A stretch of 227 bases of DNA from Escherichia coli (GTDB lineage: Bacteria; Pseudomonadota; Gammaproteobacteria; Enterobacterales; Enterobacteriaceae). The stretch lies in the NCBI RefSeq assembly GCF_003334335.1, contig NZ_QOWQ01000234.1; one strand, written 5' to 3'. Positions 1 through 227 of this stretch are shown here, piece after piece (positions within the stretch are counted from its first letter, which is position 1; every line of letters begins with the position of its first letter). The notes beneath the pieces were generated by a model. It worked only from the letters and a program-made list of their open reading frames with translations, was not told the origin of the DNA and did no database searches. The translations under genes and the position numbers were made by a program.

Positions 1-5
1 CAAAT

Positions 6-34
6 GCCTGATGCGCTACGCTTATCAGGCCTAC
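6..34 (+). repeat. REP / palindromic unit, Z2-like, copy 1
   Basis: gcctgatgcgctacgcttatcaggcctac. Imperfect palindrome with arms 6-16 and 20-30 (9 Watson-Crick pairs, one G-T, one mismatch) and a 3' CTAC tetranucleotide, matching the REP consensus pattern GCC(G/T)GATGCG...CTTATC(C/A)GGCCTAC. Confidence 0.85.
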
Positions 35-51
35 AGATTCTTGCGCCATTC

Positions 52-85
52 GTAGGCCGGATAAGGCGTTCACGCCGCATCCGGC
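52..85 (-). repeat. REP / palindromic unit, Y-like, copy 1, inverted relative to the Z2-like unit
   Basis: Reverse complement of 52-85 is gccggatgcggcgtgaacgccttatccggcctac, which matches the classic E. coli REP consensus as I recall it. Arms gccggatgcggcg and cgccttatccggc flank a tgaa loop; GTAG lies at 52-55 on the + strand. Confidence 0.88.
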
Positions 86-98
86 AATGGTGACAAAT

Positions 99-127
99 GC
101 CTGATGCGCTACGCTTATCAGGCCTAC
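99..127 (+). repeat. REP / palindromic unit, Z2-like, copy 2
   Basis: Identical to 6-34, offset by 93 bp. Confidence 0.85.
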
Positions 128-144
128 AGATTCTTGCGCCATTC

Positions 145-178
145 GTAGGCCGGATAAGGCGTTCACGCCGCATCCGGC
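145..178 (-). repeat. REP / palindromic unit, Y-like, copy 2
   Basis: Identical to 52-85, offset by 93 bp. Confidence 0.88.
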
Positions 179-191
179 AATGGTGACAAAT

Positions 192-220
192 GCCTGATGC
201 GCTACGCTTATCAGGCCTAC
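192..220 (+). repeat. REP / palindromic unit, Z2-like, copy 3 (unit truncated by the window end after 227)
   Basis: Identical to 6-34, offset by 186 bp; followed by the first 7 nt of the 17-bp linker. Confidence 0.85.
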
Positions 221-227
221 AGATTCT

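Follow-up and report, generated by a model that had tools for sequence, protein, structure and literature searches.

Anatomy and genomic setting of the array

The 227-nt window, by which we mean the whole stretch of E. coli DNA analysed here, had an exact match in one of 5,426 complete E. coli genomes, that of strain N921 (NZ_CP176484.1 3665951-3666177, corresponding to L001 4001-4227 in our locus coordinates). Related REP sequences were present in all 5,426. The N921 match lay in the interval between yahG and yahI, within the cluster yahD-E-fdrA(yahF)-G-I-J, whose genes run on the window's minus strand. Tandem Repeats Finder reported positions 1-227 as one array with a period of 93, 2.4 copies (2.44), 100% matches and 0% indels. 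An ungapped repeat finder gave 1-93 as identical to 94-186, and 1-41 as identical to 94-134 and 187-227, all at 100%. The claim that the 2.4 copies contain neither substitutions nor indels was borne out by both searches, and a 134-nt perfect self-match at an offset of 93 far exceeds chance. Within each 93-nt unit, a Z2 palindromic unit is separated from an inverted Y unit by 17 nt of spacer, and an 11-nt linker completes the repeat. The window is laid out as follows.

1-4, + strand: end of the S linker (CAAA, the last 4 nt of the 11-nt head-to-head linker of the preceding unit); the perfect periodicity of N921 begins here
5-34, + strand: Z2 palindromic unit, copy 1, 30 nt, TGCCTGATGCGCTACGCTTATCAGGCCTAC; predicted hairpin of -13.2 kcal/mol
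35-51, + strand: tail-to-tail spacer, 'C' variant, 17 nt, AGATTCTTGCGCCATTC; the most variable segment among units and strains
52-86, + strand: Y palindromic unit, copy 1, inverted, 35 nt, GTAGGCCGGATAAGGCGTTCACGCCGCATCCGGCA; predicted hairpin of -20.9 kcal/mol
87-97, + strand: head-to-head 'S' linker, 11 nt, ATGGTGACAAA
98-127, + strand: Z2 palindromic unit, copy 2 (repeat finders)
128-144, + strand: tail-to-tail spacer, copy 2, 17 nt (repeat finders)
145-179, + strand: inverted Y palindromic unit, copy 2 (repeat finders)
180-190, + strand: S linker, copy 2 (repeat finders)
191-220, + strand: Z2 palindromic unit, copy 3 (repeat finders)
221-227, + strand: tail-to-tail spacer, copy 3, first 7 nt; in N921 the array runs on for 45 nt, through its last Y unit, and stops
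55-124 and, identical to it, 148-217, + strand: match to Rfam naRNA4 (RF02564), 78 bits against a gathering score of 59.5
1-227, - strand: covered by the annotated ORF yahH/hypothetical protein (N921 L001 3846-4235; 129 aa, all of it repeat units)

In N921 the array occupies L001 3820-4272 (453 bp) and comprises 10 palindromic units (4.9 repeat units, arranged A-B-C-C-C'), which supplies the copy number that the original prediction had left open. Unit A is 92 nt long and C' is truncated after its Y unit. The start of the window coincides with the start of perfect periodicity in this strain: the base immediately to the left breaks the period (G, not A), and beyond it lie the diverged units B, which differs from unit C by 5 substitutions, and A, which differs by 2 substitutions and a 1-nt deletion. 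On the right, perfect periodicity runs on for 45 nt, to L001 4272, and then gives way to unique sequence, the array ending 12 nt from the yahG stop codon. The expectation that the array extends past both window edges was therefore true on each side in N921, but the copies on the left are diverged and those on the right remain perfect for 45 nt only.

Two strong hairpins per unit were predicted on either strand. In whole-window RNA folds of either strand (z about -6 for each), Y and Z2 units paired over long distances; this pairing arises because the palindromes are inverted, and it informs on neither strand nor function. In a single-unit fold, window positions 41-50 paired with 86-96 (unit positions 37-46 with 82-92), so that pairing between the spacer and the S linker lengthened the Y hairpin. 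The paired positions 45 and 83 co-change in unit B of K-12 and N921 (T to C and A to G, respectively), but support for this pairing was mixed, since units with C45 and A83 also occur. A CRISPR-like or other spaced-repeat reading was rejected, since the 'spacers' do not differ from one another and the repeats correspond to the Y and Z2 palindromes already described.

Element class and copy number among genomes

BIME-2 elements consist of y and z2 units of alternating orientation, joined head to head by a short S linker and tail to tail by a spacer of the s, l or r type, and repeated in tandem, with a copy number that depends on the strain at a given locus (PMC3333891). They range from 2 to 12 palindromic units and showed PCR length polymorphism across 51 isolates (PMC1187871). 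Compared with the consensus of the Rfam naRNA4 model, the 35-nt unit of the yah array departed from the Y-type hairpin at a single position. The Z1-type hairpin, as it occurs in that model and in REP325, is 7 nt longer than the 30-nt unit, which was therefore assigned to Z2. The naming of both units also leans on the consensus sequences of Bachellier et al. 1994. Orientation alternates in the BIME-2 layout, with Z2 (+) at 5-34, 17 nt of spacer, the inverted Y at 52-86 and 11 nt of linker. The array is multi-copy, with 10 palindromic units in N921 and 2, 6, 8 or 10 elsewhere, and it is extragenic, beginning beyond the stop codon of yahG and ending ahead of the start of yahI; the one ORF that overlaps it, the doubtful yahH, is itself made of the repeat. 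Its copy number varies between strains, as seen in 57 sampled genomes and verified by sequence at 13 loci.

Judged by its sequence, the yahG-yahI array is a BIME-2, each defining feature that could be examined having been found. The BIME-2 call of the original prediction was right, the repeat being a Z2 unit, spacer, inverted Y unit and short linker, in tandem and outside genes. Set against BIME-2 in the Gilson/Bachellier/Hofnung classification, with REP23 at yahG-yahI, the array differs in nothing of kind. It occupies the same locus as the five repeat blocks described in EHEC, where the element was called REP23/yahH (PMC4765031).

The match to naRNA4 deserves separate comment. On the minus (operon-sense) strand the score fell to 53.9, under the gathering score of 59.5, so that the matching strand is the one antisense to yahG and yahI. 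On this strand no promoter-like site was found in or beside the array, and one weak site lay inside yahI (L001 3704-3731). The hairpin pair of naRNA4 and REP325 is Y plus Z1, and the second hairpin at yah is a Z2, shorter by 7 nt. REP325 (yjdM-yjdN, K-12) shares with the yah array a structure of several REP units, an S-type linker and a position between two tandem genes in an operon. However, the period of REP325 is 100 nt, owing to the longer Z1-type unit, against 93 nt at yah, and its naRNA4 orientation is operon-sense (L014 3806-4382, minus strand), whereas that at yah is antisense. The yah array resembles naRNA4 because each is a REP pair, and it should not be filed as a naRNA4 gene. naRNA4 has been claimed to bind HU and to condense the nucleoid (PMC4550694), but the nucleoid role was not reproduced in a later study (bioRxiv 10.64898/2026.03.23.713779). 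Automatic annotation would call naRNA4 genes at yah on a strand that may carry no transcript.

Array lengths across E. coli were obtained by querying with the unique flanks only, array length being the span minus 600. An evenly spaced sample of 60 records contained 57 with a complete locus, which fell into the following classes.

No BIME, about 34 bp: 7 of 57 genomes
0.9 units (one Z2 and one Y), 81-92 bp: 24 of 57 genomes
2.9 units, 268 bp: 2 of 57 genomes
3.9 units, 360-371 bp: 21 of 57 genomes
4.9 units, 453 bp: 3 of 57 genomes

The length classes were borne out by the sequences of 13 loci. The ladder of 93-bp steps that had been predicted was thus seen directly in complete genomes (0, 0.9, 2.9, 3.9 and 4.9 units, or about 0, 82, 268, 360 and 453 bp), and the 57-genome sample confirmed that BIME-2 copy number varies between strains at this locus. 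Among the best 60 listed genomes with flanks 100% identical to those of N921, a set that includes many laboratory-evolved K-12 derivatives, the array was 360 bp and 3.9 units long in 60 of 60. This constancy alongside identical flanks indicates that the locus is not hypermutable and is stable within a lineage. As far as these assemblies tell, the locus is polymorphic between lineages and stable within them. Strain-dependent tandem copy number is also a property of simple-sequence contingency loci and phase-variable tandem repeats, but the yah array differs from these in its 93-nt unit with internal palindromes and in its constant number among the best 60 listed genomes. The variability among close relatives that marks contingency repeats was not seen here, N921 being the single exception found.

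Several alleles at or near the locus had features of their own. In the BIME-free allele of EC488 (NZ_CP109874.1, L010 352-446) the array is replaced by a different segment of about 55 nt with a 10-bp hairpin (CCTTCTCCCC/GGGGAGAAGG), and this allele does not resemble a simple empty site. The EC488-type segment was single-copy, confined to this locus and present in 163 of 5,426 genomes. In TB06052 (NZ_CM129848.1), the region downstream of yahJ (L004 1-1128) is unlike that of K-12, with genes for an ASCH-domain protein and for an autoinducer-2 ABC transporter binding protein in place of yahK; the five-unit array of this strain lies in a haplotype other than that of N921. About 120 plasmid places (e.g. 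NZ_CP173542.1 49193-49443) matched the flank probe in its yahI portion only, with ~96% identity, suggesting that plasmids carry a carbamate-kinase-like paralogue.

Origin of the identical copies

The array of K-12 MG1655 is A-B-C-C', and its unit B carries the same private substitutions as that of N921. When one C unit was removed from the N921 sequence, ungapped comparison with K-12 gave 3 mismatches in 7,200 nt, none of them in the array, indicating that N921 has the K-12-type allele plus exactly one C unit. The N921 allele, with five units of which three are identical C units, was unseen in the other 5,425 complete genomes. On these comparisons the perfect 2.9-unit tract arose when the 93-bp unit C was duplicated once, recently and in this lineage only. 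The copies are thus identical because a single unit was privately duplicated, not because the whole array was homogenised.

In the parent allele, C and C' already formed a 175-nt perfect direct repeat, and unit C would have been duplicated by replication slippage or unequal sister-strand exchange between these adjacent copies. A 41-nt probe for the C-type spacer was found in 1,775 genomes, at a median of 2 places per genome, and among the places listed all were at yahH. This confinement points to growth by local duplication, and import of a unit from another BIME locus was rejected on the same ground. The probe also matched 14 plasmid places, and at least one genome had 6 places. We consider it probable that the parts of the preferred reading hold jointly: the window is the identical core of the REP23 array, which underwent one recent duplication of unit C by slippage or unequal exchange and would act as an intercistronic REP element.

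A perfect direct repeat of 175 nt should be enough for RecA-independent slippage or unequal exchange, and on general grounds the C-C' repeat would account for the gain without the REP-associated Y1 transposase (TnpA-REP/RAYT), an enzyme that cuts and religates BIME DNA in single-stranded form. That the transposase, instead of slippage or unequal homologous exchange, made a real unit gain is a proposal we regard as unlikely. In its favour, the duplicated segment is exactly one REP/iREP pair, and TnpA-REP cleaves BIMEs in vitro, promotes their recombination and has been proposed as the source of copy-number and linker variation in BIME-2 (PMC3333891). On the other hand, plasmid-borne REP arrays were stable in the REP325 study. 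Because the copies are identical, the junction bears no signature of the mechanism, and slippage, unequal recombination and transposase-mediated amplification are indistinguishable from sequence.

The duplication would be illusory if the N921 assembly over-counted by one unit and the true allele were the common K-12-type one of 3.9 units, a prospect to which we give little credence. N921 stands alone among 5,426 genomes, and its extra unit rests on a single assembly. The 3.9-unit state of the best 60 of 60 listed genomes with identical flanks shows that such events are rare, so that a one-off error is not negligible, and an identical C/C' tract is a classic spot for miscounted copies. However, the N921 record is a closed complete chromosome, and an array of just 453 bp is easily spanned by any long read. 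Moreover, repeat mis-assembly usually loses copies instead of gaining them, and natural five-unit arrays exist at this locus in O157:H7 and TB06052.

A different account would attribute the identity of the copies to selection on a protein. The annotated ORF, labelled 'hypothetical protein' or 'protein YahH' by PGAP, lies on the same strand as the operon-sense transcript that runs from yahG to yahI. Since 93 nt equals 31 codons and the minus strand of the unit can be read without a stop in two of its three frames, the annotated ORF lengthens with the array: N921 has 129 aa, K-12 (as annotated) 106 aa, and EC-107 and 2013C-4991 have 98 aa each. In EHEC, ribosome footprints over the yahH ORF have been reported (PMC4765031). 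These frames and footprints favour a real repeat protein whose 31-residue repeat is kept identical by selection, but several observations make this very improbable. Of the 57 sampled genomes, 31 have 0.9 units or no BIME, and yahH was unannotated in all four inspected loci of these two kinds. Units of 92 nt shift the frame inside arrays, and the 100-nt period of REP325 is no multiple of 3. A search of NCBIfam gave no credible YahH family; its sub-threshold, zero-stretch hits (SidA at 34.8 against a cutoff of 35, MamS and selenoprotein B) were read as noise. A functional YahH protein is unlikely.

The distribution of differences between units also argues against coding, since variation tracks hairpin anatomy and not codon position. 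Only 0.4% of cells in Z2 and 1.0% in Y differed from unit C, but the figure rose to 9.8% for the 17-nt spacer and to 3.5% for the S linker; the palindromic units thus vary at 0.4-1% of cells and the spacers at 3.5-10%. In the third unit of M16807 (L008), two G-C pairs of the inner Y stem (alignment columns 62/71 and 64/69) have become A-T by compensatory change, converting GGCG...CGCC to GACA...TGTC, so that the hairpin is kept. The concentration of differences in the spacers, together with these compensatory changes, suggests that what is conserved is the hairpins.

Arrays in other strains had histories of their own. Units 2 and 3 of M16807 have five derived variants in common, indicating an independent unit duplication there, and TB06052 has three C-like units in a row that differ by a 1-nt deletion. 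Unit 2 of EC-107 lacks three changes found in K-12 unit B, two of which occur in the distant M16807. Such mosaicism of units between strains is what might be cited for array-wide homogenisation by gene conversion at unchanged copy number, a reading that we dismiss as scarcely credible because N921 exceeds its near-identical relatives by 93 bp, units A and B have kept their K-12 sequence and diverged units lie directly to the left of the window. The original prediction had offered amplification or homogenisation as the cause of the perfect identity. Amplification stood, as a K-12 allele plus one C unit in 1 of 5,426 genomes, and homogenisation of the whole array did not. Diverged flanking copies, which it had named as evidence against recent homogenisation, were present on the left; they exclude the array-wide process but not a recent duplication of a single unit.

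Proposed role in the yah operon

By analogy with characterised REP elements, the array itself would be an intercistronic REP element in the operon mRNA. Its stable Y and Z2 hairpins would shield the upstream yahG segment from 3'-exonucleolytic decay and would attenuate read-through into yahI/yahJ. At REP325, the upstream yjdM mRNA is stabilised and yjdN is attenuated about 8-fold, partly via Rho, and a ladder of hairpin-terminated transcripts is produced (bioRxiv 10.64898/2026.03.23.713779). Against the analogy, the yah array faces the other way from REP325 with respect to transcription. No intrinsic-terminator-like site was found in the yah array region, which rejects an intrinsic terminator in the array and fits decay blocking and factor-dependent attenuation.

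The first hairpin may be placed to dampen translation of yahG. The yahG stop codon is at L001 4285-4287, and 13 nt separate it from the first Y hairpin stem (L001 4271-4287). As summarised in PMC12306157 from Liang 2015, terminating ribosomes stall at REPs that lie <16 nt from a stop codon, and the upstream gene is translated less. At the DNA level the array would be a gyrase target, BIME-2 elements in general being described as bound and cleaved by DNA gyrase in the accounts of Espeli and Boccard 1997 given by PMC3333891 and PMC12306157. One extra unit would at most tune such effects.

A stronger proposal holds that the unit number is a heritable dial of the ratio of yahG to yahI/yahJ expression, that YahH is really translated and gains 31 residues per unit, and that the gain in N921 is functional and not neutral. 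If so, each 93-bp unit would add hairpins for decay protection and attenuation. We think this improbable.

Polymorphism in the length of BIME-2 elements has been on record since the 1990s, and the yah array is an ordinary case of it at a previously described locus, of little importance beyond housekeeping. The repeat gives rise to yahH, an ORF that is doubtful or spurious and is annotated at a length that follows the copy number. The N921 allele nevertheless offers a clean, sequence-resolved case of BIME-2 growth, in which one Z2+Y unit was apparently duplicated beside an already identical neighbour. The natural series of 0, 1, 3, 4 and 5 units is material with which a tuning of neighbouring genes by REP arrays, as lately proposed, could be tested.
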